This document shows positions 4,489-55,733 of a DNA stretch of 64,000 bases, piece after piece; the first letter of the stretch is position 1; the number at the start of each line of letters is the position of its first letter. Origin of the DNA: Patescibacteria group bacterium (GTDB lineage Bacteria; Patescibacteriota; Minisyncoccia; Minisyncoccales; JAHCRE01); assembly GCA_020148055.1 (NCBI GenBank), contig JAHCRF010000001.1, positions 71,257 to 135,256 on the forward strand, in the 5' to 3' direction. The notes beneath the pieces were generated by a model that had not been told where the DNA came from, did no database searches, and saw only the letters and a program-made list of their open reading frames with translations. Made by a program: the position numbers and the translations under genes.

Positions 4489-4512
4489 TTAGTTTAGATT
4501 CGTAATTCGTAG
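4455..4512. repeat. 'cgaat/attcg' word palindrome; perfect 18-nt palindrome aattacgaattcgtaatt at 4473-4490
   Basis: Direct reading. Overlaps the last codons and stop of the GT gene (peptide ..YEFPRITNS*). Sits between convergent GT and recG, so it is a likely bidirectional terminator. Related to 52212-52278. Confidence 0.75.
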
Positions 4513-7060: not shown

Positions 7061-7084
7061 AAAAACCGGCGAAGCCGGTTTTTT
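7061..7084. terminator. bidirectional intrinsic terminator (aaaaa-ccggc-gaa-gccgg-tttttt)
   Basis: 5-bp GC stem flanked by an A-run and a T-run, between the tRNA-Ser pair (+) and comF (-). Confidence 0.7.
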
Positions 7085-7115
7085 ATTCCTAATTCTGGAT
7101 TCATAATTCTTAATT
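7081..7115. repeat. five-heptamer half-element (ttttatt cctaatt ctggatt cataatt cttaatt)
   Basis: Direct reading. Same unit family as the right arm at 37476-37510. Abuts the terminator hairpin. Confidence 0.7.
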
Positions 7116-7119
7116 TTAA

Positions 7120-13608: not shown

Positions 13609-13614
13609 AATAAA

Positions 13615-19708: not shown

Positions 19709-21225
19709 GATTTTAAAATGTAGGGTAAATTTCTTTTCCCTTTTGCCTTTTGATACTTTCTTAAAATCAAATCAATTTTTGATTTTTTTATTCTAAATTT
19801 CTTTTCAATTTCTTTTTTTGAAATTTTTAAATCCTCAATAGCAGATAAAACCGTGTCAATTTCCAAATAAAAGGCTCCGATTTCTCCTTCATCTGTCTGA
19901 CCTTTCCATAGTTCAGGAGAAGGAGCTCTTTTGAGAATTTCATCTGTAATTTCTCTAAAGAAATTGGCTATTTGATAAACTTGGATTTTATAAAGATTAT
20001 TTATCGGTTCAACTCCTGAAACTCTATCTCCACCGATTGTAAAATATCCCAACCTTTCTTCACTTTTATCTTCACTCCCAATAACAATAGCACGCTTGAC
20101 AGCTGATAAATCAAATAAAATCCCCATTCTTTCTCTTGCCATTAAATTTCCTTTTCTGATTTTTATGTTCCCACCTTTAAATTTTTTTAGAATTTTCCAG
20201 CTTAGATCAACCTGTTTATTTATTGGAATAGTAATTAAATTTTCTTTTGGCAATTTTAAATTTCTTGCCAATTTTTCAGCTAAAATTAGGCTTTCTTTTG
20301 AAGAAATTCCCAAGTAAGGCATTCTTAAAAAATAGACATTTTTTGGACCTAAAGCCTTAACTGCCAAAGTGGCAGCCAAGGCAGAGTCAATTCCTCCTGA
20401 TACTCCAATCACTGCTTTTTTGAAATGATATTTTTTAAAATAATTTCTTATCTCTTTAATTTTTTTCCCTGTAATCTCTCTGATTTTTTTCTGGGTAAAT
20501 CTTAAATGAGGAGGAATTTTTTCAAAATCAATGTAAGAAGCTCCTCTTGCTTCGTTCAAAAATCTCTCCTTCTTTAGAAAATAGGTTTTTCTTGGCATAT
20601 TTGGAGTAGTATATAATTTTTTTTCTTTAATATACTTTAGCACCTTTTCTGGCACCAAAGAAGTTAAATTTTTACCCTTCCTTATTCTTTCTCGAATTTT
20701 AGTAGCTGAAATCGGTATGTTTAAATTTACTTTTATTATCTTTTTAAAAGCTTTTTTTGATTTTTCTTTAAATTTTTTAGGAAGCTTTTTTAAATTAAAT
20801 TGGTGCCAAGATCTAGTAAAAACAATAAATTGAGCTAAATCTAAAATTTTTAAATCTCCTTTCCACTTCCCTTCAATAATTTCTCTTAAGGAATCTTCTC
20901 CAATTAACCAAAAAATTTGGCAGTTTCTCAACTTTTTTCTAAAAAATTTGAGTGTTTCAATAGTGAAACATTTTTTCTTTTTTCTTATCTCATAATCTGA
21001 AACTTCAAAATAAGGCCTTCTTTCAATTAAAAGCTTAGTCATCAAAAATCTATCTTTAGCTGAAGGCATTTTTTCTTTCTTCAAAGGAGGAACACCCGAA
21101 GGTAAAAAAATAATTTTTTCTAAATTAAGTTTCTTAAGGGCAGTTTCGGCTAAGATTAAATGGCCAAAATGGGGAGGATTGAGAGCTCCTCCTAATATCC
21201 CGATTTTTGAAATTTTTCTTTCCAT
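19705..21225 (-). CDS. fusion protein: nicotinate-nucleotide adenylyltransferase (NadD) + NH3-dependent NAD+ synthetase (NadE)
   Basis: N-terminal half has GILGGALNPPHFGHL and ISATKIRERI (NadD). C-terminal half has VIGVSGGIDSALAA (PP-loop NadE). Confidence 0.8.
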   Translation of the reverse strand: MERKISKIGILGGALNPPHFGHLILAETALKKLNLEKIIFLPSGVPPLKKEKMPSAKDRFLMTKLLIERRPYFEVSDYEIRKKKKCFTIETLKFFRKKLRNCQIFWLIGEDSLREIIEGKWKGDLKILDLAQFIVFTRSWHQFNLKKLPKKFKEKSKKAFKKIIKVNLNIPISATKIRERIRKGKNLTSLVPEKVLKYIKEKKLYTTPNMPRKTYFLKKERFLNEARGASYIDFEKIPPHLRFTQKKIREITGKKIKEIRNYFKKYHFKKAVIGVSGGIDSALAATLAVKALGPKNVYFLRMPYLGISSKESLILAEKLARNLKLPKENLITIPINKQVDLSWKILKKFKGGNIKIRKGNLMARERMGILFDLSAVKRAIVIGSEDKSEERLGYFTIGGDRVSGVEPINNLYKIQVYQIANFFREITDEILKRAPSPELWKGQTDEGEIGAFYLEIDTVLSAIEDLKISKKEIEKKFRIKKSKIDLILRKYQKAKGKRNLPYILKS

Positions 21226-27177: not shown

Positions 27178-30100
27178 ATGAAGTTTAAAGATTTTTCAAA
27201 ATCAAAAATTTCCCTACCCTTACCTTATTTACTCTCGATTCAAAGAGAAAGCTGGCAGAGATTTTGGGAAAGAGATTTAAAAGAACTCTTTTCAGAAATA
27301 TCGCCCATTCAAGATTATACCGGAAAGGAGTTAGAACTCTGGTTTTTAGACTATAAATTGGATGAGCCCAAATATAAAACTACCTTGGAAGCTAAGGAGA
27401 ATAATGATTCTTATGAAGCAGCCTTGCGGGCTAGAGTAAGATTAGTCAATCTCAAAACAAAAGAAATTAAAGAACAAGAAGTCTTTTTAACCGATTTCCC
27501 CTTAATGACCAAGAGAGGAACTTTTATTGTTAACGGGATAGAAAGAGTAGTTATTTCTCAGCTTATTCGTTCCCCCGGCGCCTTTTTTACTTCTCAGATA
27601 ATTAGAGGTGAAACTCATTTTGGAGCAAAAATTATTCCTAATCGGGGAGCTTGGCTTGAATTTGGAACTGAAGCCTCCGGTTTTATTGGAGTTAAGATTG
27701 ACCGAAAGAGAAAAGTAGCAGCTACTACTTTATTGAGAGCTTTCGGAATTGATCAAGATGAAAAAATTCTAGAGATCTTCCAAGATATTGATAACAATCC
27801 AGAAATTAACTATATTTCAGAGACAATAAAAAGAGACCCTACTAAAAATCAAGCCGAAGCCTTAATTGAAGTCTATCAGCATCTAAGACCAGGAGATTTA
27901 ACAACCGCTGAGACAGCTAGAGAGTTGATTGAAAACATGTTTTTTAATTTTGAAAGATATGATTTGTCAAAAGTAGGGAGATGGCGAATGTGGCAGAGAC
28001 TACCGGAATTGAAAAAATCCAAAATCCAAAAGGGGCCCACGAAAGTGGGAGGGCGGTCGGGACGCGAGGCCTTCCCGCGGAACGGGAGGCCCCGTCCTTG
28101 GGTGGGTTGGAGTCCAAAATCCAAAACTAAAAAGCCAAAGCTAGAAGAAGGAATCACCAGGTCAGATAGGGTTTTGCATCCCGAAGATATTGTGGCTGTT
28201 TTGAGAGAGATTATTAGATTAAATAATGACCCCGGGGGAAAACCCGATCAGATTGATCATTTGGGCAATCGGCGAGTAAGAACTTTAAATGAACTTTTAC
28301 AAAACCGATTAAGGGTAGGTTTAATGAGAATGGCCAGGATTATCAAAGACCGAATGGCTACTTTAGATATTTCCATCTTAACCCCGGTTCAATTGATTAA
28401 TTCCCGACCATTTATAGCGATAGTTAGGGAATTCTTTACCTCTTCTCAGCTTGCTCAGTTTATGGACAATGAGAATCCTCTTGCTGAATTAGAGCATAAA
28501 AGAAGACTATCAGCTACCGGACCAGGTGGTTTAACTCGAGAAAGAGCTGGGTTTGAGGTTAGAGATGTTCAACCATCCCATTATGGAAGGATTTGCCCTA
28601 TCCAAACTCCTGAAGGACCAAATGTTGGGTTAATTAATCATTTAGCTGGTTTTGCCCGAGTTAATCCTTATGGTTTTATTGAAACTCCTTATTTCAAGGT
28701 GAAAAATGGAAGGGTTACTTCAGAAATTTGTTATCTTAATGCCTATGAAGAAGAAAAGTATAATATTGCCCATGGAGGAGTACCAATCGATGAGAAAGGC
28801 AAAATTACCTCCAAAAAGGTTGAAGCTAGAGTAAAGGGTGAACCAGGAATAGTTGGTAGAGAAAAAGTTGATTTTTTCGACATCTCTCCTGCCCAATCAA
28901 TTTCTATCGCTACTTCTTGCATTCCTTTTTTACAAAATGATGATGCCAACCGAGCCTTAATGGGATCAAATATGCAAAGACAAGCTGTTCCTCTTCTCAG
29001 ACCAGGGGTTCCCCTAGTTATTACTGGAGCAGAAGAGAAGGTAGCTAGAGATTCTGGCCAGGAGATAATTGCCGAGGAAGAAGGGGTTGTTACCGAAGTC
29101 GATGCTAATCATATTAAAATTAGGGGTAAAAAGGGAGAAAAGAAATATCCTCTGCAAACTTTTATTCAGACCAATCAATTCACTTGTTTTCATCAAAGCC
29201 CCTTAGTTAAAAAAGGGAAGGTTGTTAAAAAAGGAGACATTTTAACTGATGGTGGAGGAATTTCTCAAGAACATTTAGCTTTAGGCCGAAATATTTTGGT
29301 TGCTTTTATGTCCTGGCGTGGAGGAACTTTTGAAGATGCAATTTTGATTTCTGAAAGATTGGTTAGAGATGATGCTTATACTTCAATTCATATTGAGGAT
29401 TTTAGTTGTGATGTTCGAGAAACCAAATTGGGACCGGAGATTACAACCTGTGATATTCCTAACGTTTCAGAAGAAAAATTGAGGAATTTAGATGAAGAAG
29501 GTTTAGTCAGAATTGGGGCTGAAGTTGGCCCAAATGATATCTTGGTTGGGAAGATTTCTCCAAAAGGAGAAGTTGATTTAACTGCTGAGGAAAGATTATT
29601 GAGAGCTATTTTTGGAGAGAAAGCTAGAGAAGTTAAAGATACCTCTTTATTAATGGAGCATGGTAAACAGGGGAGGGTAATTAATGTGAAGATTTTTTCT
29701 AGAGAATCGGGTCATAGACTTGACCCCGGAGTGATAAAAAGAATTGATGTTAAAGTAGCGGAGATTAGAAAAACTCAAGCCGGTGATAAATTAGCTGGTC
29801 GCCATGGGAATAAGGGAGTGATTTCTAAGGTTTTACCAATTGAAGATATGCCATTTTTAGAAGATGGAACTCCAGTCGATATTATTTTAAATCCTCTAAG
29901 CATTGCCTCGCGAATGAATATTGGTCAAGTTCTGGAAGCTCATTTAGGAAAAGCGGCCAAAAAATTGGGCTACATTGCTATTTCTCCGGCCTTAGCTGGA
30001 GTGACTGAGGAAGAGATTAAAGAAGAGCTTAGGAAGGCTGGATTACCAGAAGATGGAAAAGTCGCTCTTTATGATGGCCGAACCGGCCTACCTTTTTCCA

Positions 30101-30480
30101 AAAAAATTACTGTTGGCTATGTTTATATGATGAAATTAATTCATATGGTTACCGATAAAATCCACGCCAGATCAATTGGACCTTATTCTCTAATTACTCA
30201 ACAGCCCTTAGGAGGAAAGGCCCAATTTGGAGGTCAAAGATTCGGAGAAATGGAAGTTTGGGCTTTAGAAGGACATGGAGCAGCCCATAGTTTACAGGAA
30301 ATGTTAACTATTAAATCCGATGATGTCCAAGGTCGGGCAGCTGCTTATCAGGCCATCTTAAAAGGAGAGCCAATCAGAAATCCTAATGTTCCCGCGTCTT
30401 TAAATTTACTAATCAATGAATTAAAGGCTCTTGGGCTAAATGTTGAAATAAAAGAAAACCCCAAAGAACAAGAATCCTGA
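27178..30480 (+). CDS. rpoB: DNA-directed RNA polymerase beta subunit
   Basis: 1100 aa with canonical beta motifs (GRHGNKGV, FGEMEVWALE). Carries a 123-nt repeat insert at 28014-28136. Confidence 0.97.
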   Translation: MKFKDFSKSKISLPLPYLLSIQRESWQRFWERDLKELFSEISPIQDYTGKELELWFLDYKLDEPKYKTTLEAKENNDSYEAALRARVRLVNLKTKEIKEQEVFLTDFPLMTKRGTFIVNGIERVVISQLIRSPGAFFTSQIIRGETHFGAKIIPNRGAWLEFGTEASGFIGVKIDRKRKVAATTLLRAFGIDQDEKILEIFQDIDNNPEINYISETIKRDPTKNQAEALIEVYQHLRPGDLTTAETARELIENMFFNFERYDLSKVGRWRMWQRLPELKKSKIQKGPTKVGGRSGREAFPRNGRPRPWVGWSPKSKTKKPKLEEGITRSDRVLHPEDIVAVLREIIRLNNDPGGKPDQIDHLGNRRVRTLNELLQNRLRVGLMRMARIIKDRMATLDISILTPVQLINSRPFIAIVREFFTSSQLAQFMDNENPLAELEHKRRLSATGPGGLTRERAGFEVRDVQPSHYGRICPIQTPEGPNVGLINHLAGFARVNPYGFIETPYFKVKNGRVTSEICYLNAYEEEKYNIAHGGVPIDEKGKITSKKVEARVKGEPGIVGREKVDFFDISPAQSISIATSCIPFLQNDDANRALMGSNMQRQAVPLLRPGVPLVITGAEEKVARDSGQEIIAEEEGVVTEVDANHIKIRGKKGEKKYPLQTFIQTNQFTCFHQSPLVKKGKVVKKGDILTDGGGISQEHLALGRNILVAFMSWRGGTFEDAILISERLVRDDAYTSIHIEDFSCDVRETKLGPEITTCDIPNVSEEKLRNLDEEGLVRIGAEVGPNDILVGKISPKGEVDLTAEERLLRAIFGEKAREVKDTSLLMEHGKQGRVINVKIFSRESGHRLDPGVIKRIDVKVAEIRKTQAGDKLAGRHGNKGVISKVLPIEDMPFLEDGTPVDIILNPLSIASRMNIGQVLEAHLGKAAKKLGYIAISPALAGVTEEEIKEELRKAGLPEDGKVALYDGRTGLPFSKKITVGYVYMMKLIHMVTDKIHARSIGPYSLITQQPLGGKAQFGGQRFGEMEVWALEGHGAAHSLQEMLTIKSDDVQGRAAAYQAILKGEPIRNPNVPASLNLLINELKALGLNVEIKENPKEQES
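28014..28136 (+). repeat. nested insert in rpoB: 'aaaatcc' heptamer array interrupted by element A
   Basis: aaaatcc aaaatcc aaaa[84-nt A]aaaatcc aaaacta aaaagcc. The total of 123 nt equals 41 codons. Confidence 0.8.
28032..28115 (+). repeat. GC-rich hairpin element family A, copy 2 (in frame in rpoB, sense)
   Basis: 84 nt, about 87% identical to 1463-1547. Encodes ..GPTKVGGRSGREAFPRNGRPRPWVGWSP... Confidence 0.9.
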
Positions 30481-30556
30481 ATTATGAATTAGGAATCAAG
30501 AATAAAAAATAAGAAATAAAAATTCATAATTCATACTTCATAATTCGTAATTCTGA
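30476..30556. repeat. composite palindrome in the rpoB-rpoC spacer: 5x7 'NNNgaat' array, 11-nt core, 5x7 'attcNNN' array
   Basis: cctgaat tatgaat taggaat caagaat aaaaaat / attcata attcata cttcata attcgta attctga. The left arm overlaps the rpoB stop codon. Confidence 0.8.
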
Positions 30557-30560
30557 TATT

Positions 30561-33500
30561 ATGAGAGTAGCTGATCTTAAATCAATAAAAATTCGCTTAG
30601 CCTCACCAGAAGAAATTTTATCTTGGTCTCATGGCGAGATTACTAAACCTGAAACCATCAATTATCGAACTCAAAGAGCAGAAAAGGACGGTCTTTTTTG
30701 TGAAAGAATTTTCGGGCCAACTAAAGATTATCAATGCTATTGCGGTAAATATAAAAGAATTCGTTATAAAGGGATAACTTGCGATCGCTGTGGGGTAGAA
30801 GTGACAAAATCTTCGGTCAGACGAGAGAGGATGGGTCATATCAAATTGGCCTCACCGGTTTCTCATATTTGGTTCTTAAGAGGAGTACCGTCGCGAATGG
30901 GAATAATCTTAAATGTTTCTTTACCCAAATTGGAAAGGGTAATTTATTTTGCTGCTTACATTATCACAGAAGTTATAGAGGAGGCTAAGAAAAGAGTTTT
31001 AAAAGAGATTGAGAAAGAATACAGGTCAAAGGTAAAAACTCAAAAAGCTTCCCCAGCCCCACCCGCCACCCATCAAAGGAAAAAAACATCTAAGGCAAAA
31101 ACAAAAAGTAAAAATAAAATAAAACCCCAAGACCTGAAAGTAGCCAGAGATAAAGCTAAAGAGGAAGTGTTAGCTTTGAAACCTTTGAAAATTCTTTCTG
31201 AGGTGGAATATCACAATCTTTCTTTTAAATATGGAGAGGTTTTTACAGCGGGAACAGGAGCAGAAACTCTAAGGAAAATTTTTGAGAAGATAGATTTTAA
31301 AAAAGAAATTACCAAATTAAAAAAAGAAATTGAAAAAGCCTCACCGGTGAGTCGAAGAAAAATTTTAAGGAGATTGAAACTCTTCCAGTCGATGTCTAAC
31401 GCAAAACTGAGACCAGAGTGGATGTTTCTGAATGTTTTGCCGATTTTACCCCCAGATTTAAGACCAATGGTTCAGTTAGATGGTGGTCGTTATGCTTCCT
31501 CTGATTTAAATGATCTTTATAGAAGAGTAATTAATCGGAACAACCGTTTGAAATATCTTTTAGAAATTGCAGCTCCTGAAGTTATTGTTAGAAATGAGAA
31601 AAGAATGTTGCAGGAAGCAGTTGATGCTCTGATCGATAATGGAATGAGAAAGGGAGTAATTACCAGGGCGACCACTGGAGGAAGAAGGCTTTTGAAATCT
31701 TTAGCTGATATGTTGAAAGGAAAACAAGGGAGATTCAGGCAAAATCTTTTAGGTAAAAGAGTTGATTATTCGGGCAGATCGGTGATTGTCGTTGGACCAA
31801 AATTAAGACTTCATCAGTGTGGTCTTCCTAAAAAGATGGCCTTGGAATTATTTAAACCTTTTGTTATTAAAAGAATTTTAGATAAAGAATTGGCTTACAA
31901 TGTAAGGGCAGCTTCGAGGTTGATTGAGCAGGAAACCGAGGAAGTTTGGGCAATCTTAGAAGAAGTGGTTAAAGATAAATTGGTTTTATTAAATCGGGCT
32001 CCAACCTTACATCGATTAGGAATCCAGGCTTTCCAACTAATATTAATTGAGGGAGAAGCAATTCAAGTCCATCCTTTAGTTTGTAAAGCCTTTAATGCCG
32101 ATTTTGATGGGGATCAAATGGCTATCCATTTACCTTTATCAACTGAGGCCCAAAAAGAGGCTAAAGAAATAATGTTATCTACCTTAAATCTTTTGAAACC
32201 AGCCACTGGTATTCCAATTGTAACTCCTACTCAAGATATTATCCTTGGCTGCTATTTTTTAACCAAAATTAAAGAGAAAGCTAAAGGGGAAGGGAAGATC
32301 TTTGGAAATTTCCAAGAGACCGTTTTAGCTTATGAGTTTGGAGAGGTAGACTTAAAAGCCGGAATCAAGGTTAAAATAAAGAATTCGGAATTTTTAGAGA
32401 CTTCGGTTGGGCGAATTATTTTTAATGAGACTTTACCCGCAGGCTTCCGGTTTATTAATGAAGTGATAAATTCAAAGAAATTAGAAAAAGTGATAAGTGA
32501 AATTATTGAAAATTACGGAATAGAAAGATCGGTTGCTACCCTGGATAAAATTAAAGATTTGGGATTTGAATATGCCACTATTTCAGGTTTATCCTGGGGA
32601 ATGGATGATTTAGATATTCCTAAAGAAAAAGAAGAATTAATTAAAGGGGCAGAAACAGAAATAGAGATGATCGAAGAACACTTCAAAAAAGGGTTACTGA
32701 CTGAGGAAGAAAAATATCTAAAGACAATTGAAATTTGGCAAAAAATAAAATCAAAAATTGAAAAAATTGTTCCGAAGACATTACCATCTGAGAGTTCAGC
32801 ATTTTCAATTGTTGATTCCGGAGCGAAAGGCTCCTGGATCCAACCTGTGCAGATGTGTGGAATGAAGGGTTTAGTGATTAATCCAATGGGACAGATTATT
32901 GAACTTCCAATCAAAAGTTCTTATAAAGAAGGATTTAATGTTTTGGAATATTTCATTTCTACCCATGGAGCAAGAAAAGGAACAGTTGATACGGCTCTAC
33001 GTACCTCTACTGCTGGCTACTTAACCAGAAGACTTATTGATGTCGCCCATGAGGCAGTAATAACTGAGGAAGATTGTCATGACGAGAAAGGGATTGAAAT
33101 ATCCAGAGGGGATGCTGAAGAAATTGGCCAGAATTTTATCTTCAAGATTTTAGGGAGAGTAGTTATAGAAGATGTCAGAAATCCCGCCAGAGGCGAGGCT
33201 CGCCAAGGGCGGCAAAAAGCAAAAAGCAAAATTATCAAAAAAGGAGAAATAATTGATTGGAAAGCGGCTGAGGAAATAATTAAAGCTGGGGTTGAAAAAG
33301 TTCGAGTTCGTTCTCCCTTAACTTGTAAGTCAACCAGAGGAATTTGCCAGAAATGCTATGGCTGGGATTTAGGCTCAAATCAATTAGTTAAATTAGGGGA
33401 AGCGATGGGGATTGTTGCTGCCCAGGCGATTGGCGAGCCGGGAACTCAATTAACGATGAGAACTTTTCATACCGGTGGCGTGGCTGGAGGAGAAGATATA

Positions 33501-36402: not shown

Positions 36403-37401
36403 ATGGCAAGACAGAAGAAAGAAAAAAAACTTGAAAAAAAGGATTTAGAAGGGGCAATAACCGAAATTAAACAGCGCTTCGGTGAAGGGTCAATCATGAA
36501 ATTAAAAGAAACCCGGCCAGTTGATGTTGATGTAATTCCTACTGGTTCAATTTCTTTAAATCTGGCTTTAGGAGTAGAAGGAATACCTCGGGGTAGAGTG
36601 ATTGAAGTTTTCGGACCAGAGGGAGGAGGAAAAACAACTTTGGCGCTTCATATTTTAGCTGAGGTTCAAAAAAGAGGAGGGGTGGCAGCTTTTGTTGATG
36701 CCGAGCATGCTTTAGATCCTGATTGGGCAAAAAGAATTGGAGTAAACGTCGATGATCTTTTAATTTCTCAACCCGATTCTGGAGAACAGGCATTAGAGAT
36801 CGTTGAGACTTTAGTTAGATCGGGCCAAATTGATGCTATAGTGATCGATTCAGTTGCTGCTTTGACCCCCCAAGCTGAAATTGAAGGCGAGATGGGAGAA
36901 TTTCAGATTGGCCTTCAGGCTCGTTTGATGTCGCAATGTTTACGAAAATTGTCGGGAATTGTTTCTAAAACTAAGACCTCGGTTATCTTTTTGAATCAGA
37001 CCAGGATGAAAATTGGTATTCGCTTTGGAAATCCTGAGACCACTCCTGGGGGTTTAGCTTTAAAATTTTATTCCTCGGTGAGAATTGCTTTAAGAAGAAT
37101 TGCTCAGATAAAACACGGGGAGGAAATTATCGGCAGTCGAATAAAGGCTAAAATTGTCAAAAATAAAGTAGCCGCTCCTTTTAAAACAGCTGAATTTGAT
37201 ATTTATTATAACGAAGGAATTTCTTATCTGGCCGACATTTTAAATACTGGAATTAAGTTAGAAGTTATTAAGAAAGCCGGAAGCTGGTTGAAATATGAGA
37301 ATATAAAATTAGGACAGGGCTTTGAGGCTAGTAAAAAATTCTTGAAAGAGAATCCAAAAATACTAAAGAAAGTAAAAGAAGCGATTGTAAACCAAGTTTA
37401 A
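36403..37401 (+). CDS. recA: recombinase RecA
   Basis: [12 protein letters not shown], the L1/L2 loop region and NQTRMKIG. Confidence 0.97.
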
Positions 37402-37510
37402 GAATCACGAATCACGAATTATGAATTATGAATAGAATAAAAACGGTAATTCAAAAACTGCCCCCAAGGGCAGTTTTTTATTCTTGATTCCTAATTCCTT
37501 ATTCTATTTA
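37402..37510. repeat. composite palindrome: 5x7 array (gaatcac gaatcac gaattat gaattat gaataga), terminator core, inverted 5x7 array (ttttatt cttgatt cctaatt ccttatt ctattta)
   Basis: Direct reading. Lies between convergent recA and rpsR. The right arm overlaps the rpsR stop. Confidence 0.8.
37453..37479. terminator. bidirectional intrinsic terminator core (aaaaa-ctgccc-ccaa-gggcag-tttttt)
   Basis: 6-bp GC stem, 4-nt loop, flanking A-run and T-run. Confidence 0.8.
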
Positions 37511-42201: not shown

Positions 42202-43916
42202 ACTTCTATTAGCACCGGAAGAATGATTGGACGTCGTTGAGTTTTAGTATATAAGAATTGGCCGATTTTATTTCTTATTTCATCTTTGACATAAGTCCAA
42301 TTAACTGCTCCTCCTGAGCCCGCAGTTCTATTTACAATACTGATTACTTTTTTCCTTGTATTTTTTAGTAATTCTTTTGATTCTCTAAGATAAACAAACC
42401 CTCTTGATATTATATCAGGCGAACCTTTAACTTTACCAGTCTGGCGATCTATTACTGCCACAATAACAAACATCCCATCTCGAGCCAGCATCTGGCGGTC
42501 TCTTAAAACCACTGCGCCAACGTCGCCAATACCTAAACCGTCAACCATGACATAACTTGAAGAAACCCTTGTTTTCTCAATAAAAATTTTTTTCTGAGTT
42601 AGGTTAATAACTTGACCATTCTCAGCCACTACCACATTTTTTTTAGGCACCCCTAAATCCTTAGCCAGTTCTCCATGGGAAACTAACATTGAATATTGGC
42701 CATGGATCGGTAAAAAGAATTTGGGTTTCATAATTTTTATCATTTCTTTTAGCTCCTCTTTCTGAGCATGACCACCGGCGTGAATATCCATCATTTTGTA
42801 GTGGAAAACCCTTGCCTTTTGTCTTAAAATGTCATCTTTCAAAATTTGGACCGTTCTCTCATTTCCAGGAATAACCGAGGAGGAAAGCACAACGGTGTCT
42901 CCTTCTTTAAAACGAATAAAGGGATGTTCTCTATTTGTAATTCTCATTAAGATAGCTGATCCCTCCCCTTGGGCACCGGTACAGAGAATAGTTATTTTTG
43001 AATTTGGATAATTTTCAACATCTTTTGCCCTAATAATCATTCCTTTTTTAAATTTGATATATCCTAAAATCTTTGAGATTTCAACATTAGTTTTCATCGA
43101 ATAACCTTCAATTACCACTTTCCTTTTGAATTTTTGTGATAAACTAATGATTTGCTGAATCCTATTTATTAAGGAGGCGAAAGTAGCGGCGATAATTCTA
43201 CCTTTCGCCTTTTTAAATATTTCTTCTAAATTTTGCAAAATTTCTCTTTCTGAAAGAGAGTGACCGATTTCTTCAGCTCCAGTGGAATCTGATATTAAAA
43301 GTAAAATTTTTCTTTTGGAAAAATTTCGAAGTTTCTGGAAATTGGTTGGTAAGTCGTTTATCGGAGTAGGATCAAACTTAAAATCAGAGGTATGCAAAAT
43401 ATTGCCGATTGGTGTTTCAATAAAAAGCCCCAGATTATCAGGAATGTTGTGATTGATACGAAAGAACTCAATTCTAAAAGGTCCTAGCTTAATTTTTGAA
43501 CCGTCTCTAACTTCATTAATTTGTAGTTTTGGTAGGTTCGGGAAATCTCCCTGTCTTTTTAGAATAATACCCCGAGTTAGAGGAGAGGCAAACATTTTCG
43601 GATTTTTTAATTTTTCAATCAGGTAAGGAATAGCCCCAATATGATCATAATGGCCATGGGTAAAGACTACGCCCAAAATATCTTTTTCTTTGCCCTTAAG
43701 GTAGTTGATATTGGGAATGATAAAATCTATCCCCGGCATATTCTCTTCAGGCAATCTAAAACCCATATCAATAATTAAAATCTTCTTTTTATATTTCGAG
43801 TGGGAACGAGAAATATCCCTAGAGGTATACTCAAGAAGCATCATATTTCGGCCAACCTCGCCTAAGCCTCCTAAAGGAATAACGCGTAAATTCTGCTGCT
43901 TTTTTGTTTTAGCCAT
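42198..43916 (-). CDS. rnj: ribonuclease J (metallo-beta-lactamase / beta-CASP)
   Basis: FTHGHYDHIGA motif and beta-CASP region, 572 aa. Has a 4-nt overlap with trpS. Confidence 0.9.
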   Translation of the reverse strand: MAKTKKQQNLRVIPLGGLGEVGRNMMLLEYTSRDISRSHSKYKKKILIIDMGFRLPEENMPGIDFIIPNINYLKGKEKDILGVVFTHGHYDHIGAIPYLIEKLKNPKMFASPLTRGIILKRQGDFPNLPKLQINEVRDGSKIKLGPFRIEFFRINHNIPDNLGLFIETPIGNILHTSDFKFDPTPINDLPTNFQKLRNFSKRKILLLISDSTGAEEIGHSLSEREILQNLEEIFKKAKGRIIAATFASLINRIQQIISLSQKFKRKVVIEGYSMKTNVEISKILGYIKFKKGMIIRAKDVENYPNSKITILCTGAQGEGSAILMRITNREHPFIRFKEGDTVVLSSSVIPGNERTVQILKDDILRQKARVFHYKMMDIHAGGHAQKEELKEMIKIMKPKFFLPIHGQYSMLVSHGELAKDLGVPKKNVVVAENGQVINLTQKKIFIEKTRVSSSYVMVDGLGIGDVGAVVLRDRQMLARDGMFVIVAVIDRQTGKVKGSPDIISRGFVYLRESKELLKNTRKKVISIVNRTAGSGGAVNWTYVKDEIRNKIGQFLYTKTQRRPIILPVLIEV

Positions 43917-44102: not shown

Positions 44103-44694
44103 CTTTTAAAAAATCTAAATTTTTTGGCATTGATTTAAAAGGTTTTTCAAAACGAAGCTTTGGAACTTTAGTATAATTTTTGTTTTTCATCCAACCGGAT
44201 TGAGTATAAAAATAGCAAGCGCCTCCCATTTTTTCTATATCCCTATAAATATTTTTGGTTTTTTCTGAAACCCAGTTTCCTGTTTTTAGTACCCTTTTAG
44301 AGGGATTGATGGTAATTACTGCATAATCCGGAGGCACAACAACCCAATTTCCTGGTTTAGCTGTTGTTATTATAACATCTTTAACAATTTCGCCTTGAAC
44401 TTTTTGCATTAAAAAAATTGCTTCTCCCTTCAAAACAGTATAGAGCTCTTGATAACCTTCTGAATTACGGTTGCCTTTGGTTCTAACAAATTCTTTTCCT
44501 AACATCCTCGCAGGGATAACCGTGATATCATACCTTAAACCGTCTTTTTTTTTGATGCCTCGATACATATAATAAAGCTCCAAATTAGGGGCTGTTTTAA
44601 GCCATTCTTGATCATAAATAACCTTTCGCATATCGTTCAAACAGCGAATATCAGGCTTTCTGTTCTCTATTTCTTGTTTCTTGTTTTTTAACAT
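44071..44694 (-). CDS. cupin-fold protein homologous to archaeal-type glucose-6-phosphate isomerase (metal ligands apparently not conserved)
   Basis: GKEFVRTKGNRNSEGYQELYTVLKGEAIFLMQ aligns from memory with the Pyrococcus cPGI GKEFFFTKGHFHAKLDRAEVYVALKGKGGMLLQ. Start set at the TAATG overlap (44694). The 3' end overlaps the tRNA-Leu gene by about 32 nt. Confidence 0.6.
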   Translation of the reverse strand: MLKNKKQEIENRKPDIRCLNDMRKVIYDQEWLKTAPNLELYYMYRGIKKKDGLRYDITVIPARMLGKEFVRTKGNRNSEGYQELYTVLKGEAIFLMQKVQGEIVKDVIITTAKPGNWVVVPPDYAVITINPSKRVLKTGNWVSEKTKNIYRDIEKMGGACYFYTQSGWMKNKNYTKVPKLRFEKPFKSMPKNLDFLKGGRGGTGRRR

Positions 44695-47327: not shown

Positions 47328-48803
47328 TTAATTCCTAGTCAACATTTTTTCCTTTCTCAATTTCCTATGATAAGAAATCGCAAATCGGTGAGCCTCGTCA
47401 CGTAATTGCAAAATTAAATTGAAAATTTCTCTTGGTAAGTTTTTCAGAAAAATCGGCCTTTTTCGATTCTCAATGTATAGTTTATTTCCCTTTTTAGCTA
47501 AACTTGCAACTATTATCTTTTTTTTGCTTTTTGCTTTTTGCTTTTTGATTTTGAGGGCAGCGTTAAGTTGCGTGATTCCCCCATCAATTAAGACCAAATC
47601 TGGCCAGCCCCATTCAGGATGTTGCAATCTCCGAGATAAAATTTCTTTTATCATTGCTATATCACTCGGTCTGCCAGAAATCTTGATTTTAAATTTTCGA
47701 TAAAATTCTTTAGCTGCCTGGCCTCTAATAAATGTCACCATGGCACCTACAGCTAATTTTCCAGAAATATTTGAAATATCATAGGCTTCAATTCTTTTTA
47801 TCTTCTTTTCGGTTTTTAAAATTTTCTTTAAAATTTTTTGAATTTGGGGCCAGTCCAAAATTTTTGCCTGCTTGCCAGGATCTGTGACTTCAAGCGCTGG
47901 CAGGCGGGCATTAAGGATTACCTTTTCTAAGGAAAATATTTTATCCCTAATTTTGGCTGCTTTTTCAAAATTTTGCAAATCAGCTGCTCTTTTCATTTCT
48001 TTTTTTAAATTTCTTAAGACCTGATTTCTTTTTCCTTGGAGAATTTTGAGAAGATTTCTGGCGTTCCTTTGACACTCCTTTTTAATTTTTTCTCTTAGCC
48101 CAGGAATTTGAGAACTAAGTTTTGCTCCCCCCCTAGGGTCGCCGTAAGGCGACTCCTTCAGGGATTTTAATAGGCAAGGAGCTGGACAACGACCCAATTG
48201 ATACCAGAGACAAGGTCTTTTTGGCAAGATTTTGCAGGTTCTGTAAGGGAGAGCTTTCCTTAAAATTTTTAGAGTTTGTTTTAAAGCTTTACCATCAACA
48301 AACGGACCAATAAACTGGAATTTAGAATTATGAATTATGAATGATGAATTATAAGGTTTTTTCTTTTTTGTTCTTGATTCTTGATTCCTGACTCTTGATT
48401 CCCAAAATGGTTGGTGGGTCAAGAATACTCTTGGAAAGCCCTCTTTAGCTATTCCAACATAAAAATAATTTTTGTCATCTCGCCAAACAACATTATATTT
48501 TGGTAGAAATTTTTTTATTAAATTTGCCTCCAGAATTAAAGCCTCGATTTCTGAATCAGCTTTGATAAAACCTATTTTTTTGGTTTTATCTAGAAAAATA
48601 CTTTCTTTGAAACCGGGTTGTTGAAAATGATTTTTAACTCGCTTTCGAATATTTGAAGCTTTGCCAATGTATAAAATTTTCCTTTCTTTGAAGCAATAAA
48701 CCCCCGGCTTTTTAGGAAGTTTTTTAACCCCCTCCTTTTTTAAAAATTTAAATTTTTTCACGTTCGGTAATCCGATTTTAACTTGAAATTGATAATTTTT
48801 CAA
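47328..48803 (-). CDS. uvrC: excinuclease ABC subunit C
   Basis: GIY-YIG N-terminus (PGVYCF..ILYIGKA..), UvrBC domain, RNase H-like endonuclease domain and a C-terminal HhH region. Interrupted in frame by four repeat inserts. Confidence 0.9.
   Translation of the reverse strand: MKNYQFQVKIGLPNVKKFKFLKKEGVKKLPKKPGVYCFKERKILYIGKASNIRKRVKNHFQQPGFKESIFLDKTKKIGFIKADSEIEALILEANLIKKFLPKYNVVWRDDKNYFYVGIAKEGFPRVFLTHQPFWESRVRNQESRTKKKKPYNSSFIIHNSKFQFIGPFVDGKALKQTLKILRKALPYRTCKILPKRPCLWYQLGRCPAPCLLKSLKESPYGDPRGGAKLSSQIPGLREKIKKECQRNARNLLKILQGKRNQVLRNLKKEMKRAADLQNFEKAAKIRDKIFSLEKVILNARLPALEVTDPGKQAKILDWPQIQKILKKILKTEKKIKRIEAYDISNISGKLAVGAMVTFIRGQAAKEFYRKFKIKISGRPSDIAMIKEILSRRLQHPEWGWPDLVLIDGGITQLNAALKIKKQKAKSKKKIIVASLAKKGNKLYIENRKRPIFLKNLPREIFNLILQLRDEAHRFAISYHRKLRKEKMLTRN
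47531..47565. repeat. five-heptamer array (tttttgc x3, tttttga, ttttgag) inside uvrC
   Basis: Direct reading. Encodes ..KIKKQKAKSKKKI... Reverse complement of the rpoC array family. Confidence 0.85.
47866..47909 (+). repeat. 13-bp GC hairpin insert in uvrC (gcctgcttgccag-N18-ctggcaggcgggc)
   Basis: Direct reading. Two of the 13 pairs are G:T, which is only tolerated if the plus strand folds. Shares caggcgggca with family B. Confidence 0.65.
48125..48163 (+). repeat. element family E, copy 2 (gtcgcc-gtaa-ggcgac hairpin at 48138-48153), in frame in uvrC
   Basis: Perfect 6-bp stem with a GNRA-type loop. Encodes ..KESPYGDPRGGAK... Related to 5620-5649. Confidence 0.7.
48315..48401. repeat. complete 87-nt composite palindrome ('gaat/attc' family) inserted in frame in uvrC
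   Basis: ctggaat ttagaat tatgaat tatgaat gatgaat, then a 17-nt core, then ttttgtt cttgatt cttgatt cctgact cttgatt. 35+17+35 = 87 nt = 29 codons (..ESRVRNQESRTKKKKPYNSSFIIHNSKFQ..). Confidence 0.85.
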
Positions 48804-48864
48804 CCAGATTTGTTAGATAGAGGGTTTGTTGAAATTCTTTGAAATTTTGGGTATAATAACTTTT

Positions 48865-49698
48865 ATGAAAGAAAAAGTTATTAAAATCCGTGGAGCCAAA
48901 GTTCACAATTTAAAAAATATTAATCTTGATATCCCAAAAAACAAACTGGTAGTGATTACTGGGATTTCAGGTTCAGGAAAATCATCTTTGGCCTTTGATA
49001 CATTATATGCTGAAGGACAAAGAAGATATGTTGAGAGTTTATCTGCTTATGCAAGGCAATTTTTAGGAGTGATGGATAAACCAGAGGTTGACAAAATTGA
49101 AGGAATTTCACCTGCAATTTCAATTGACCAAAGAAAAGCAGCTCACAATCCACGCTCCACTGTTGGAACCATTACTGAAATTGCAGATTACTTAAGATTA
49201 TTATTCGCTAGGATAGGGAAGCCCCATTGTCCAAAATGTAAAAAAACAGTTAGCCGTCAGACCATCGATCAAATTACTGATCAGGTTTTGAAATTGCCAA
49301 AAAGAACAGAAATTTCGATTTTGGGTCCAGTTGTTAGAGGTCGAAAAGGAGAGCATCGGGGAATTTTAGAAGAGATTCAAAGATCAGGATTTATCCGAGT
49401 GAGAATTGATGGGATTTTACACCGAATTGAAGACTACAACCCACCCACCATGTCCTCCCACTCGCTTCGCGAGCGGGCCCCTACTCTAGGGCTGAAGTTA
49501 GACCGAAAGAAAAAACACAATATTGAGGTTGTTGTTGATAGATTAATAATTGATAAAGACTTGGATAGATCAAGGTTGGTTGATTCTCTGGAAACAGGCC
49601 TAAAGTTGGGAAAAGGAATAGTAATAGTAACTCAAAAAGCTTCCCCAGCCCCACCCGCCACCCATCAAAGGAAAAAAACATCTAAGGCAAAAATCTAA
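48865..49698 (+). CDS. uvrA: excinuclease ABC subunit A, N-terminal fragment; the frame ends at TAA inside or just after repeat element C
   Basis: [47 protein letters not shown]... TATAAT (48852-48857) lies 7 nt upstream of the ATG. Confidence 0.85.
49435..49492 (+). repeat. GC-rich insert D in uvrA (hairpin cccactcgc-ttc-gcgagcggg at 49457-49477)
   Basis: GC island encoding ..[19 protein letters not shown].. between conserved RIDG and [13 protein letters not shown]. Shares gcgggcccct with the reverse complement of element A copy 1. Confidence 0.65.
49629..49693 (+). repeat. element family C, copy 2; coincides with the frame break in uvrA
   Basis: Identical over 65 nt to 31037-31101. Confidence 0.95.
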
Positions 49699-51799
49699 TG
49701 ACTTAATATTCAGCGAGTATTTTGCCTGCGAGGAATGTGGGATTTCTCTTCCAGAATTAGAGCCTCGGCTTTTTTCATTTAATTCTCCTTATGGGGCCTG
49801 TTCAGCCTGCCAGGGGCTTGGAGAAAAATTAGAAATCGATCCAAAATCAGTTTTACCCAATCCAAATTTATCGATTTCTGAAGGAGCAATTTTTCCCTGG
49901 GCTCATGCCTCTCATAAAGTTGGCAGGCAGGGTTATTTTTGGTGGCAGTTCACCCACTTGGCAGAAAAGTATAACTTCTCCTTAGATGTCCCGGTTAAAG
50001 AACTTCCCAAAAAGATCATTGATTTAATTTTATATGGTAATGGCCAATTTGAGGGAGTAGTTCCCAATTTGGAAAGGAGATATCACGAAACTGATTCAGA
50101 ATATACCCGTAAGGAAATTGAGCAGTATATGATAAAAAAGAGATGTGAAAAATGTCAGGGAAAAAGATTAAGGCCTGAAGCCTTGGCAGTGACTGTGATA
50201 AAAAAATCAATAAATGAAATCGTTGAAATTTCAATAGAAAAAGAAAAAAGATTTTTCGAGAATTTACTACTAAATCCTAAATCCTATAACCTAAATCCTA
50301 ATGACTACAAAATTGCCCAACCAATTGTTAAGGAAATCATTAAGCGATTACAATTTCTAATTGATGTTGGTTTAGATTATTTAACCTTAGATCGGAAGAC
50401 AGAAACTTTATCGGCTGGGGAAGAGCAGAGAATAAGATTGGCTACTCAGTTAGGTTCTCAATTAACCGGAGTTTTATACATTTTGGATGAACCTTCAATT
50501 GGTCTTCATGCTAGAGATCAGGGTAGGCTCATCGAAACCTTAAATAAGTTAAGGGATTTGGGCAATACCGTTATTGTTGTTGAACATGATCCTCAGACAA
50601 TCATGGCTGCTGACTGGGTGATCGATATAGGGCCAGGAGCGGGGAAACACGGTGGCAAAATTATATTTAAGGGAACACCAAAAGAATTACTGAGATCAAA
50701 GACACTTACTGGAGATTATTTAGCTGGAAGAAAGAAAGTTGAGATAAAAGCAACCAGCAACAAGCAACCTGCCTCGCCGACAGGCGGGCAAGCAACCAAG
50801 AATAATTATCTAATAATAAAGAAAGCGGCTGAGCACAATCTCAAAAATATTGATGTTAAAATTCCTTTGGGAAAATTTGTCTGCATTACTGGAGTTTCGG
50901 GTTCGGGCAAAAGTTCTCTAATGAATGATATTTTAGCTAAAGCCCTGATGAGGAAATTTTACAAAGCCAAAGAGGAACCGGGAGAATTTAAAGAATTAAT
51001 TGGAACAGAATTTTTGGATAAAGTGGTTTTAGTGGATCAGTCTCCAATTGGCCGAACCCCCAGATCAAATCCGGCAACTTATACCGGAGTTTTTTCTTAT
51101 ATCAGAGATCTTTTTTCAAAAACCAGAGAGGCCAGAATTAGGGGGTATCGGCCAGGACGTTTCAGTTTTAATGTTAAGGGAGGAAGATGTGAAGTATGTC
51201 AAGGTCAGGGTCAAATCAAAATCGAGATGTACTTTTTGCCTGATATTTATATTGAGTGCCAGGAATGTAAGGGGAAAAGGTTCAACAAAGAAACCTTGGC
51301 TATTGAATATAAAGGAAAGAATATTGCTGAGGTTTTAGAAATGACAGTTGAAGAAGCCCTAAAATTTTTCATAAATATTCCCGGTATCTATCATAAATTA
51401 AAAACTTTGTATGATGTTGGTTTAGGCTATATTCAATTGGGCCAGCCAGCCCCTTCTTTGTCTGGAGGGGAGGCCCAGAGAGTGAAATTAGCTACTGAAC
51501 TTTCTAAAAGGGCTACGGGAAAGACTTTATATATTTTAGATGAACCAACCACTGGTTTGCATCCCGATGATATTAAAAAATTAGTTTGGGTTTTGAGAAA
51601 TCTGGTAGATAAAGGAAATACGGTTTTATTAACTGAACATAACATCGATATCATCCGCAATTCAGATTGGATAATAGATTTAGGACCGGAAGGTGGAGAT
51701 GAAGGCGGCGATATTATTGCAATAGGTACTCCATTTGAAATTACAAAAAACAAAAAAAGTTATACCGGACACTATTTAAAACAAGTTTTTAAATCTTGA
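49631..51799 (+). CDS. uvrA: excinuclease ABC subunit A, remainder of the gene in the +1 frame (open from 49631; UvrA homology resumes about 49700)
   Basis: [41 protein letters not shown]... and a second ABC module, [10 protein letters not shown]...[12 protein letters not shown]...[12 protein letters not shown]. The track only lists it from 49958. Confidence 0.85.
50271..50305. repeat. five-heptamer array (taaatcc taaatcc tataacc taaatcc taatgac) inside uvrA
   Basis: Direct reading. Encodes ..[15 protein letters not shown]... Confidence 0.85.
50750..50807 (+). repeat. element family B, copy 2, in frame in uvrA
   Basis: gcaaccagcaacaagcaacctgcctcgccgacaggcgggcaagcaaccaagaataatt. Encodes [17 protein letters not shown]. 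Confidence 0.9.
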
Positions 51800-51919: not shown

Positions 51920-52210
51920 ATGAAAATAAAACCCTTATCTAATCACATTCTTATTGAGCCAATGAGGCAAGAGGAGAAAACTAAAACCGGAATTTTACTT
52001 CCGGAAACAGCTGAGAAGGAAAAACCAGAGCAAGGAAAAGTAATTGCTGTAGGGCCAGGAAGAAAAACGGATTCAGGTAAAATCATTCCTTTGGAAGTAA
52101 AAAAGGGGGATATTATCCTCTTTACTAAATACGGACCAACAGAAATCAAAATTAATGGTAAAGAATATTTAATTGCTAAGGAAGAAGATATCCTGGCAAT
52201 ACTTGAATAA
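51920..52210 (+). CDS. groES: co-chaperonin GroES
   Basis: 96 aa. [37 protein letters not shown]. Confidence 0.95.
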   Translation: [96 protein letters not shown]

Positions 52211-54010
<1,800 letters not shown>

Positions 54011-54827: not shown

Positions 54828-55733
54828 ATGACTCTCTATACTCTAGCTGAATCGAATATCCGGAAGACCTGGTTTTATTTAATGTTCTTTTTTTGTTTTA
54901 TTATTTTTCTTGGTTGGATTATTTCTTATTTTCTTCAAAATTGGGGAATTTTCTGGGTTGCTTTAATTCTTGGTATTCTGATGAACTTTGCCAGTTTCTG
55001 GTATTCTGACAAGATTGTTCTGGCAATGGCAAAAGCTAAAAAAATTGAGAAAAGAGATAACCCCGAGCTATATCGAATTGTTGAAAATCTTTGTATCACA
55101 GCTGGCTTGCCGTTACCTAAAATTTACATTATAAATGAGCAGCAACCAAATGCCTTTGCCACTGGCAGGGATCCAAAAAGGGCAGCAATCGCTGTGACTC
55201 AAGGACTAATTGATAAGTTAGATAGAGTGGAATTGGAAGGGGTTCTTGGTCATGAATTAGCCCATATCGGAAATCGAGATATGTTATTGGCAACTGCAAT
55301 TGTGGTTTTAGTTGGGATGGTAGTTTTGATGACTGATTTTTTCTTTCGGATTTCCTTTTGGGGAGGGGGTTCTCGGCGTCGGAGAGAAGGTCGGAGAGAA
55401 GGGGGCTCAATTTTAGGATTAATTGCCTTGATTTTGGCAATTTTTGCTCCTTTATTTGCTACTTTAATAAAACTGGCTATTTCCAGAAAAAGAGAATTTT
55501 TAGCTGATGTTTCAGGAGCCCTTTTAACCAGATATCCTGAAGGATTAGCTAGGGCTTTGGAAAAAATTTCTCGAGACCCGAGACCATTGAGAGCAGCTAA
55601 TGATGCAACTTGCCATTTATATATTGTTAATCCCTTTCGCAGTCAAGAAAGAAAATCCTGGCTTCATAAACTTTTTATGACCCATCCACCAGTTGAGGAA
55701 AGGATTCGGGCTTTGAGAGGAATGAGAATGTAA
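54828..55733 (+). CDS. htpX: M48-family zinc metalloprotease HtpX
   Basis: HELAHIGNRD (HExxH), 4 TMs, and a Gly/Arg-rich loop. Confidence 0.9.
   Translation: MTLYTLAESNIRKTWFYLMFFFCFIIFLGWIISYFLQNWGIFWVALILGILMNFASFWYSDKIVLAMAKAKKIEKRDNPELYRIVENLCITAGLPLPKIYIINEQQPNAFATGRDPKRAAIAVTQGLIDKLDRVELEGVLGHELAHIGNRDMLLATAIVVLVGMVVLMTDFFFRISFWGGGSRRRREGRREGGSILGLIALILAIFAPLFATLIKLAISRKREFLADVSGALLTRYPEGLARALEKISRDPRPLRAANDATCHLYIVNPFRSQERKSWLHKLFMTHPPVEERIRALRGMRM

Follow-up and report, generated by a model that had tools for sequence, protein, structure and literature searches.

Heptamer arrays and GC-rich mini-elements at recurrent linker sites in the uvrA and uvrC genes of a Patescibacteria group bacterium

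The excision-repair genes uvrC and uvrA lie next to each other, on opposite strands, in a 64,000-nucleotide stretch of contig JAHCRF010000001.1 from a groundwater Patescibacteria group bacterium of very small genome size (the whole of this stretch is referred to below as the window). The contig was assigned to a Paceibacteria/Nealsonbacteria-like lineage, the GC content of the window is about 35%, and the proteins encoded in it match that type of Patescibacteria. A gene map compiled from Pfam scans and from an identical ENA contig places in the window a partial valS, tsaD, recG, a pilus cluster, ligA, rpoB, rpoC, ftsK, recA, the RNase J gene, GPI, uvrC, uvrA, groES/EL, a NUDIX gene, glycogen genes and a partial dnaG. 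An original prediction, made from the sequence alone, described the nucleotide excision repair (NER) genes as insertion hot spots with four inserts each in uvrC and uvrA, and listed further inserts in genes including valS and dnaG, both of which are present as partial genes at the ends of the window. All eight features of uvrC and uvrA were recovered, at most a few bases from where they had been placed.

Repeat inserts in uvrC and uvrA

The uvrC gene (47328-48761, minus strand) is intact and encodes, from a GTG start, a product of 477 amino acids (aa) that is 100% identical to the protein P0001 and contains the Pfam domains GIY-YIG, UvrC_M, UVR and UvrC_RNaseH; like its homologues in the clade, it is without the C-terminal (HhH)2 domain. 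Three of its four features, all of which are on the minus strand, coincide with the three long coil segments of a UvrC AlphaFold model in which the predicted local distance difference test score (pLDDT) falls below 50. The longest is an inverted pair of heptamer arrays of 87 nucleotides (nt) at 48315-48401 (GAATCAA-type plus TTCATAA-type), which is translated as ESRVRNQESRTKKKKPYNSSFIIHNSKF, lies at model residues 120-146 and forms a weak block-wise stem (folding z -1.7). This stretch varies in length in every homologue, and the family to which the palindrome belongs (D1-D3, I2, I7, I13 and I14) includes intergenic palindromes at 2685-2784, 7075-7124, 30461-30553 and 37391-37510. The second, element E, is an exact 39-nt GC-rich hairpin insertion (48123-48161; 13 aa, LKESPYGDPRGGA; z -3.0) that appears as a clean 13-aa insertion in an alignment of 120 UvrC homologues and falls at model residues 199-213; about 15% of the homologues carry another insert at the same site (PKESLRLPTGQA). 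The third is a GC-rich hairpin at 47866-47909 with a 13-bp stem that includes two G-U pairs (-19.5 kcal/mol as folded RNA, z -2.7). It codes for ALEVTDPGKQA within the linker that joins the UVR helices to the RNase H-like domain (model residues 284-301), a stretch that is length-variable in every UvrC homologue, and a similar insert is found in about 5 of 45 homologues.

The fourth feature of uvrC is an array of 4.6 TTTTTGC units (GCAAAAA on the coding strand) at 47521-47552, which codes for KQKAKSKKK in a short loop between a helix (residues 396-408) and a strand (417-422) of the AlphaFold model. At this site, the linker of most homologues is also heptamer-coded and about as long, but is spelled otherwise (KCKMQNAKCKM, KIKNQESRIKN); contrary to the original prediction, the array is no insertion relative to most homologues in the clade.

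The uvrA gene (48865-51799, plus strand) carries four inserts on its coding strand, all of which fall at gaps relative to the solved Geobacillus UvrA structure 2R6F (16, 17, 7 and about 10 residues for insert D, element C, the heptamer array and element B, respectively). Insert D (49435-49482; 48 nt, 16 aa) contains the GC hairpin CCCACTCGC/GCGAGCGGG, is bordered by a TGAAG direct repeat and is present in 0 of 120 UvrA homologues; a relative of it lies between genes in the same genome (13441-13488 of L170, a locus that adds 8.6 kb of this genome beyond the window start). Element C (49630-49693) is a C/A-rich insert of 64 nt without a hairpin that shifts the reading frame by +1, and its site is the hypervariable stretch KGIVIV|..|NDLIFSE. 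The array at 50270-50301 consists of 4.6 CTAAATC units and codes for 10 residues; its third unit reads CTATAAC, by which an in-frame TAA is avoided, and the same TAA-to-TAT patch occurs in the relative L083. Element B (50749-50807) is composed of three AGCAACC units, the GC hairpin TGCCTCGCC-GACA-GGCGGGCA and a further AGCAACC, and sits in the linker between the two ATP-binding cassette (ABC) halves. Element C, the CTAAATC array and element B occupy three stretches that are hypervariable across the UvrA family, and minimal homologues read straight on through them (KGMVMVNDLLFSEH). An AlphaFold model of a UvrA homologue has its longest coils at 250-264, 457-473 and 620-656, which match the hot sites, but with a mean pLDDT of 56 it is too poor to rely on. 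Elements B, D and E and the 13-bp hairpin are multicopy imperfect palindromes of 20-40 nt with folding z values of -1.6 to -3.0, and no fold was detected for element C or for single arrays.

The effect of element C on uvrA, which the original prediction had overlooked, is a broken reading frame. Frame 0 ends at TAA TGA (49694-49699) and the remainder of the gene is read in frame +1 from 49700, so that a gene caller run on the identical ENA contig splits uvrA into products of 277 and 613 aa. Deleting the 64 nt at 49630-49693 in silico restores an 18-residue reading across the site (empty-site sequence GTAATAGTATCTAATGAC), from which it follows that the length of the element is of the form 3n+1. 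A single further assembly was found (ENA scaffold_298); it is 100% identical over 21.4 kb and, because it agrees base for base, provides no independent check of the break. Downstream of the break, the ratio of nonsynonymous to synonymous substitution rates (dN/dS) against the closest relative is 0.13, and the lineage of the window has 11 private UvrA substitutions compared with 21 in its sister; together, these values suggest that the break is very recent, a minority allele or rescued in some way. The insert contains an A7 tract (49672-49678) in which the loss of one A would restore the frame, and rescue might conceivably proceed by that route. Programmed translational bypass, as in T4 gene 60 or mitochondrial byps, was considered and rejected, since the take-off (GTA) and landing (AAA) codons of element C differ.

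Several of these elements have copies in unrelated genes. Element B (family I1) is 92% identical to recG 5383-5440, within a copy that spans 5383-5441 on the minus strand and is oriented alike with respect to the coding strand. The core of element E, GGAGTCGCCTTACGGCGAC, recurs in a recG hairpin at 5618-5646 (minus strand) with 18 of 19 core bases matching, a score reached by 0 of 1000 shuffles. Two further inserts in recG had been foreseen, and both are borne out (5390-5441 and 5618-5646). The element C stretch 49629-49693 is 100% identical to rpoC 31037-31101 (plus strand, in frame; family D11), where the copy lies inside an insertion of about 50 aa (31026-31180, residues 156-206) that no solved beta-prime subunit shares; the remainder of that insertion, outside the element, is Lys-rich. 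Sharing of GC-rich elements thus links uvrA with recG (B), uvrA with rpoC (C), uvrC with recG (the E-type core), uvrA with intergenic DNA (D) and, through an 85-nt element, rpoB with tsaD. This last element, GC-rich and strongly folding, lies in frame at rpoB 28032-28116 with AAAATCC repeats on both flanks and at tsaD 1464-1548, near the tsaD 3' end and in the opposite orientation; the copies are 85% identical. The inserts of tsaD (within 1458-2439, minus strand), used for comparison, are this element in frame (27 aa) and additionally heptamer arrays at 1825-1863, 1935-1966 and 2406-2429. The closest relative (L082) has a 60-nt element, made up of a CCCTAAA-type array in which a GC hairpin is nested, both in uvrC (residues 146-173) and in uvrA (residues 454-478), the two copies differing by one mismatch.

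An Rfam search found no match at E<=1 within 47328-51799, and a search of the whole window at gathering thresholds returned tRNAs only; the 85-nt element gave nothing beyond a chance miRNA hit. Introns, inteins and known structured RNAs were accordingly set aside as identities of the inserts, as no curated RNA family matched in 47328-51799.

Period-7 arrays and the hot-spot question

All cross-genome comparisons were anchored on uvrA/uvrC neighbourhoods or on three protein families. They comprise 120 homologues each of UvrC, UvrA and TsaD, eight syntenic loci obtained via UvrA homologues (nine syntenic genomes in the orthologue indel comparison) and 80 further related loci (L090-L169; 766 kb in total) from a metagenome scan with UvrC, hereafter the 80 relatives. 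One of the scan patterns (KIKKQKAK) was itself array-coded; it occurs in 0 of the 80 loci and recruited no locus. The negative control consisted of 1.41 Mb of uvrA loci from other bacteria, collected with universal UvrA motifs, with close relatives absent among the matches listed.

Arrays were detected with a simple lag-match score against shuffles. By this measure, the window contains 24 period-7 arrays compared with 0.2 expected, with periods 5, 6 and 8-11 at background, which excludes chance, and the 80 relatives contain 155 period-7 arrays compared with 10-30 for other periods. In the 1.41 Mb of control loci, period 7 does not exceed periods 6 or 9 in frequency, and no period-7 arrays occur in uvrA of Uhrbacteria, Sungiibacteria, Saccharibacteria or Falkowbacteria. 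A 3.9-kb uvrA in the Falkowbacteria locus proved to be apparent only, reflecting an adjacent ABC gene and not an insert. In the window, 18 of the 24 arrays are coding and at least 12 different units are represented; among the relatives, 100 arrays contain 50 distinct units, and the coding strand of the arrays is 56% A. Array lengths peak sharply at 30-35 nt (4.5-5 units) in coding and intergenic DNA alike.

The arrays recur at fixed relative positions. In the 80 relatives, every genome has them at the same two or three sites per gene, which lie in UvrC at relative positions 0.26-0.36 (44 arrays, the position of the 87-nt palindrome) and 0.84-0.87 (17 arrays), and in UvrA at 0.24-0.29, 0.46-0.49 and 0.64-0.68. 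At the element C site of UvrA, eight genomes present eight different sequences: arrays alone, arrays that enclose a GC hairpin, inverted arrays or element C itself. Because the sites are occupied throughout the clade with a spelling that differs from genome to genome, they appear to be inherited repeat loci with fast turnover and not eight independent recent hits. The consensus unit of 51 of 141 coding arrays would, if perfectly repeated, give an in-frame stop, and the offending unit is mutated in all 51; seven of the eight inserts of uvrA and uvrC also keep the reading frame. These two observations indicate that the inserts are translated and that selection polices nothing but the openness of the frame.

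For the question of hot spots, arrays and GC-rich elements of the window were merged into 23 coding insert loci, and all window statistics are post hoc. Eight of these loci fall in uvrA and uvrC, which make up 7.6% of the coding base pairs (binomial p=1.9e-4). The highest density in the window belongs to TsaD (four loci in 1.27 kb), PilD has two in 0.8 kb, and after correction for 49 genes no single gene is significant. In the 80 relatives, 101 of 125 coding period-7 arrays lie in uvrA or uvrC, which hold 32.5% of the coding base pairs (p=1.5e-28), and the density in uvrA taken by itself exceeds that of non-repair coding DNA 5.5-fold (p=2e-10). Array density per kb reaches 0.615 in uvrC, 0.277 in uvrA, 0.71 in the GPI N-terminus and 0.56 in intergenic DNA, with about 0.03 in the remaining coding DNA. 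Among orthologues of the nine genomes, extra residues amount to 11.8% of the core in UvrC and 5.1% in UvrA, 1.0-1.9% in GroEL, peptidase M48, LemA, RNase J and SBP5, and 0% in a tRNA synthetase and GroES; large indel regions per 1000 aa number 27 in UvrC and 8.6 in UvrA, and the indel load of UvrC tops the syntenic block. When 120 homologues of each protein are compared, TsaD has 6.6% extra residues next to 6.5% in UvrC and 5.3% in UvrA, and lag-7 peptide repeat runs per 1000 aa are 1.27, 0.85 and 0.12 in TsaD, UvrC and UvrA, respectively. The excision-repair genes are thus hotter than their neighbours, as had been proposed, but they are not uniquely singled out, with TsaD equally loaded.

Inserts also occur in ValS, GyrA, PilD, RecG, RpoB/C and GPI. 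In the 8.6 kb beyond the window start, valS has a second array (L170 10234-10264) and gyrA carries 5.4 units of GGTCAAA (L170 14357-14394), and six smaller genes have none; in the window, LigA, FtsK, RecA, SSB and RNase J are free of arrays and repeat inserts. The suggested restriction to genes for DNA/RNA transactions or housekeeping, with none in metabolic genes, is inexact in its latter part, given the short arrays in GPI (44670-44686) and NadD-NadE (19733-19752). A bias of arrays toward nucleic-acid enzymes is present over 72.6 kb of this genome (p=0.035, post hoc), but the excess of information-processing genes in the window loses significance when the repair genes are excluded (p=0.10), so that any bias toward DNA/RNA-handling genes overall is weak.

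A number of side observations were made on the same material. Additional intergenic heptamer palindromes stand at gene ends, at 4452-4511, 52210-52279 and 37706-37740/43920-43958 (units AATTCGT, CGAATTT and AGTATTT), and may be terminators or elements resembling repetitive extragenic palindromic (REP) sequences. A generic census of hairpins with stems of at least 10 bp (34 observed, about 11 expected) was discarded, the background of AT-rich stems being too noisy. GroEL has inserts at 53594-53662 (23 aa) and 53768-53809 (14 aa) that are common to L082 only and show no repeat or hairpin signature; a 12-aa insert in RNase J (YTSRDISRSHSK, 43794-43829), confined to this genome and likewise without a repeat signature, was tested as a palindrome and is not palindromic. 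The SBP_bac_5 protein also has an insert without a repeat signature, and the M48 peptidase gene contains a perfect 12-nt tandem repeat at 55378-55402 (GTCGGAGAGAAG, 2.1 copies). In one relative (L086), a 402-aa open reading frame with weak LAGLIDADG and helix-turn-helix hits (12895-14103) overlaps the uvrA 3' end on the opposite strand.

Explanations of the inserts

The eight features probably represent two genome-wide kinds of short repeat that settle at permissive linkers, are inherited and turn over fast, with uvrA and uvrC appearing hot through several array-bearing linkers. The first kind would be modules of about 32 nt, built of four to five imperfect 7-nt units with an A-rich coding strand and arranged singly or as inverted pairs; the second would be GC-rich mini-elements of 39-85 nt, mostly hairpins, multicopy and at times located inside arrays. 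The occupied sites would be fixed linkers between domains and loops at the protein surface, two to four in each gene, where the inserts are translated as hydrophilic and probably disordered peptide. An excess of heptameric repeats is on record for many bacteria, with slippage of the polymerase suggested as its origin (PMC4692102). Here, arrays may arise and be re-homogenised in place through replication slippage that favours 7-nt units, and the GC-rich elements may be copied from locus to locus regardless of frame; selection would then purge stops, frameshifts and disturbance of the fold, leaving inserts at linker sites alone. The element C copy in uvrA may be a fresh event that selection has so far not filtered, or one that is somehow rescued.

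Several points weigh against this interpretation. GlmM, SBP5 and GroEL have indel-tolerant sites and almost no arrays, so that some form of seeding or self-perpetuation must be assumed. The loop tolerance of multidomain proteins, one of the causes offered in the original prediction, therefore agrees with the linkers of pLDDT below 50 and with the gaps relative to 2R6F, but it is insufficient by itself. Stepwise growth of arrays in essential genes is awkward, since a single 7-nt unit shifts the frame, and the 30-35 nt mode, which is unlike a typical microsatellite length distribution, is not predicted by a plain slippage model. No mobilising enzyme was identified, with no transposase or gene of the REP-associated tyrosine transposase (RAYT) type among the Pfam hits of the 64-kb window and L170. 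Hairpins occur near arrays in 10% of cases compared with 4.7% for random positions in the same genes, an enrichment of only about two-fold, and nesting of GC hairpins in arrays was accordingly abandoned as a rule. Finally, the comparisons cover the window, a further 8.6 kb from this genome and the neighbourhoods of uvrA/uvrC.

Among the alternatives, active targeting has the most to offer. A site- or structure-specific mobilisation process would insert both arrays and hairpins, with a preference for uvrA, uvrC and a small number of other genes; it might use existing arrays as landing pads, and the 7-nt arrays would be serial target-site duplications that insertion and excision leave behind. 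This would account for the extreme site fidelity over about 90 genomes, for the near absence of arrays from other indel-tolerant genes and for modules that are uniformly about 32 nt in size; element B is bounded by the same heptamer on its two sides, as is the 85-nt element of rpoB, and insert D lies between TGAAG repeats. It is nevertheless an unlikely explanation. No target motif is shared by the units, with 50 among 100 arrays, or by the flanks; elements C and E and the tsaD copy of the 85-nt element are without flanking repeats; the association of hairpins with arrays is weak overall; the 64 kb contain no transposase or RAYT-type gene; and in an essential gene, a footprint of 7 nt added at each event would be lethal. 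Targeting of highly transcribed DNA, as also suggested earlier, finds no support in the 80 relatives, in which 44 kb of GroEL (38.8 kb) and GroES (5.2 kb) contain 0 arrays. A more speculative scheme, which we regard as distinctly improbable, would have the modules of about 32 nt made in Paceibacteria by a dedicated DNA-level mechanism and not left over from slippage. Serial 7-bp target duplications that arise as GC hairpins insert and excise, or a templated repeat-adding enzyme, would re-use fixed landing pads in conserved genes such as uvrA, uvrC and tsaD; the broken uvrA would then be this process in action and may be a reversible off-switch of excision repair.

Function of the inserts themselves is quite improbable. 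Lys/Asn-rich linkers could be selected in nucleic-acid-binding proteins, or the repeats could serve as phase-variable switches of repair that generate mutator subpopulations. Arrays are indeed kept at identical sites throughout the clade, their peptides are often basic (KQKAKSKKK), nucleic-acid enzymes show the weak excess described above (p=0.035), and a 7-nt unit is not a multiple of three, with uvrA found in an 'off' state. The peptide sequences are, however, wholly unconserved, minimal homologues do without the inserts (KGMVMVNDLLFSEH), short imperfect arrays suppress slippage, essential genes in which an off state would be lethal are hit as well, and uvrA is broken by element C and not by an array. 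A phase-variable contingency locus was rejected in particular, the arrays consisting of four to five imperfect units and occurring also in rpoB, rpoC, valS and gyrA.

Relaxed selection on NER, the remaining cause offered in the original prediction, or ongoing loss of NER would let junk build up in uvrA and uvrC, and the frame break by element C and the indel load of UvrC, the highest in the syntenic block, could be taken in its favour. This explanation is very unlikely. The dN/dS check, rough because dS is high (0.6-1.2), gave values of 0.12 (uvrA; 0.13 downstream of the break) and 0.19 (uvrC), neither of them outside the 0.04-0.25 of six neighbouring genes; UvrA core identity is 0.81, among the highest in the syntenic block; the window lineage is not accelerated (11 versus 21 private changes); all 240 UvrA and UvrC homologues are full length; and the essential genes rpoB, rpoC, valS, tsaD and gyrA carry the same inserts. 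An assembly or annotation artefact, whether a chimeric metagenome consensus or mis-called genes, is hardly credible: a 65-nt repeat with 100% identity could be a consensus error and ENA scaffold_298 is not independent, but both flanks of every insert are collinear with homologues, and about 90 independent assemblies, drawn from several sources, show inserts of these kinds at these very sites.

Comparison with known repeat systems and significance

The closest parallel to translated inserts of this type is found in Rickettsia. According to the summary of Ogata et al. (2000, 2002) in PMC10969869, Rickettsia palindromic elements (RPEs) are in-frame, translated and fold-compatible inserts of about 100-150 bp, fall into about ten sequence families with a conserved peptide and are confined to Rickettsia. 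The inserts described here resemble RPEs as short, repetitive and in part palindromic sequences that are inserted in frame and translated in unrelated housekeeping genes of a reduced genome, at fold-compatible sites and with intergenic copies. They differ in their size of 32-87 nt and in that many are 7-nt arrays without a conserved sequence, such that the peptides at one site are unrelated between genomes; RPE sites are scattered, whereas here the same sites are used throughout the clade.

Heptameric simple sequence repeats (SSRs), such as the short tandemly repeated repetitive (STRR) sequences of Calothrix and Nostoc and the GGGAATC repeats of Xanthomonas (PMC4692102), likewise consist of over-represented 7-nt tandem units, occur singly or as inverted pairs and differ in length and sequence between close relatives. 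Those repeats are, however, described from intergenic DNA, each genome having a single conserved unit or a few (PMC4692102), in contrast to the dozens of spellings, the modules of about 32 nt and the many in-frame arrays in conserved genes found here. REP sequences and REPINs, which are mobilised by RAYTs (PMC3116915, PMC3733652), are multicopy GC-rich imperfect palindromes of 20-40 nt, a description that fits elements B, D and E and the 13-bp hairpin. REPs are by definition extragenic, whereas all eight features here lie inside uvrA or uvrC. The GTAG or CGTC tag that most REPs have at one end is also absent from elements B and E, the 13-bp hairpin and the rpoC and NUDIX hairpins, with a tag present only in insert D (CTAC) and the 85-nt element (CGTC). 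The defining features of RPEs, heptameric SSRs and REPs were each examined and not found in full, and the inserts are for this reason not placed within any of the three.

Two further comparisons bear on particular aspects. Elhai and colleagues are said to have described, in 2008, very small hairpin elements nested in tandem heptamer repeats of cyanobacteria. The likeness lies in hairpins within heptamer arrays; the nesting observed here is modest (10% versus 4.7%), and the phylum is a different one. Lineage-specific insertions in the RNA polymerase beta and beta-prime subunits, and comparable loop insertions of large enzymes, mostly form folded domains that remain stable across a lineage. The rpoC copy of element C resembles them in its use of a recurrent permissive position, but it consists of rapidly changing repeat DNA that is common to unrelated genes. 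Searches of a limited full-text collection turned up no account of heptamer arrays or in-frame repeats for either Patescibacteria or Paceibacteria.

The best reading of the hot genes is that they are a handful of hot sites, namely old permissive linkers with self-renewing 7-nt arrays and occasional copies of GC-rich mini-elements. On this view, uvrA and uvrC stand out through the several long-lived linkers of this kind that each of them has, and TsaD, ValS, GyrA, PilD, RecG and RpoB/C are alike in this respect. For annotation, this means that protein lengths vary by 5-12% in such genomes and that genes are broken up, as happened with uvrA. Until now, selfish or slippage-born repeats that are translated within essential genes were a Rickettsia curiosity; the present case extends them to a candidate-phyla lineage with genomes of about 0.6 Mb, to another kind of repeat and to loops that have stayed fixed over deep divergence. 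The tight module size, together with restriction to a single clade, hints at a peculiarity of replication or repair. With about 90 genomes offering a different solution each at the same site, the clade also constitutes a natural experiment on the arbitrary peptide load that the linkers of UvrA, UvrC and TsaD can bear and on the patching of stop codons in 7-nt repeats.

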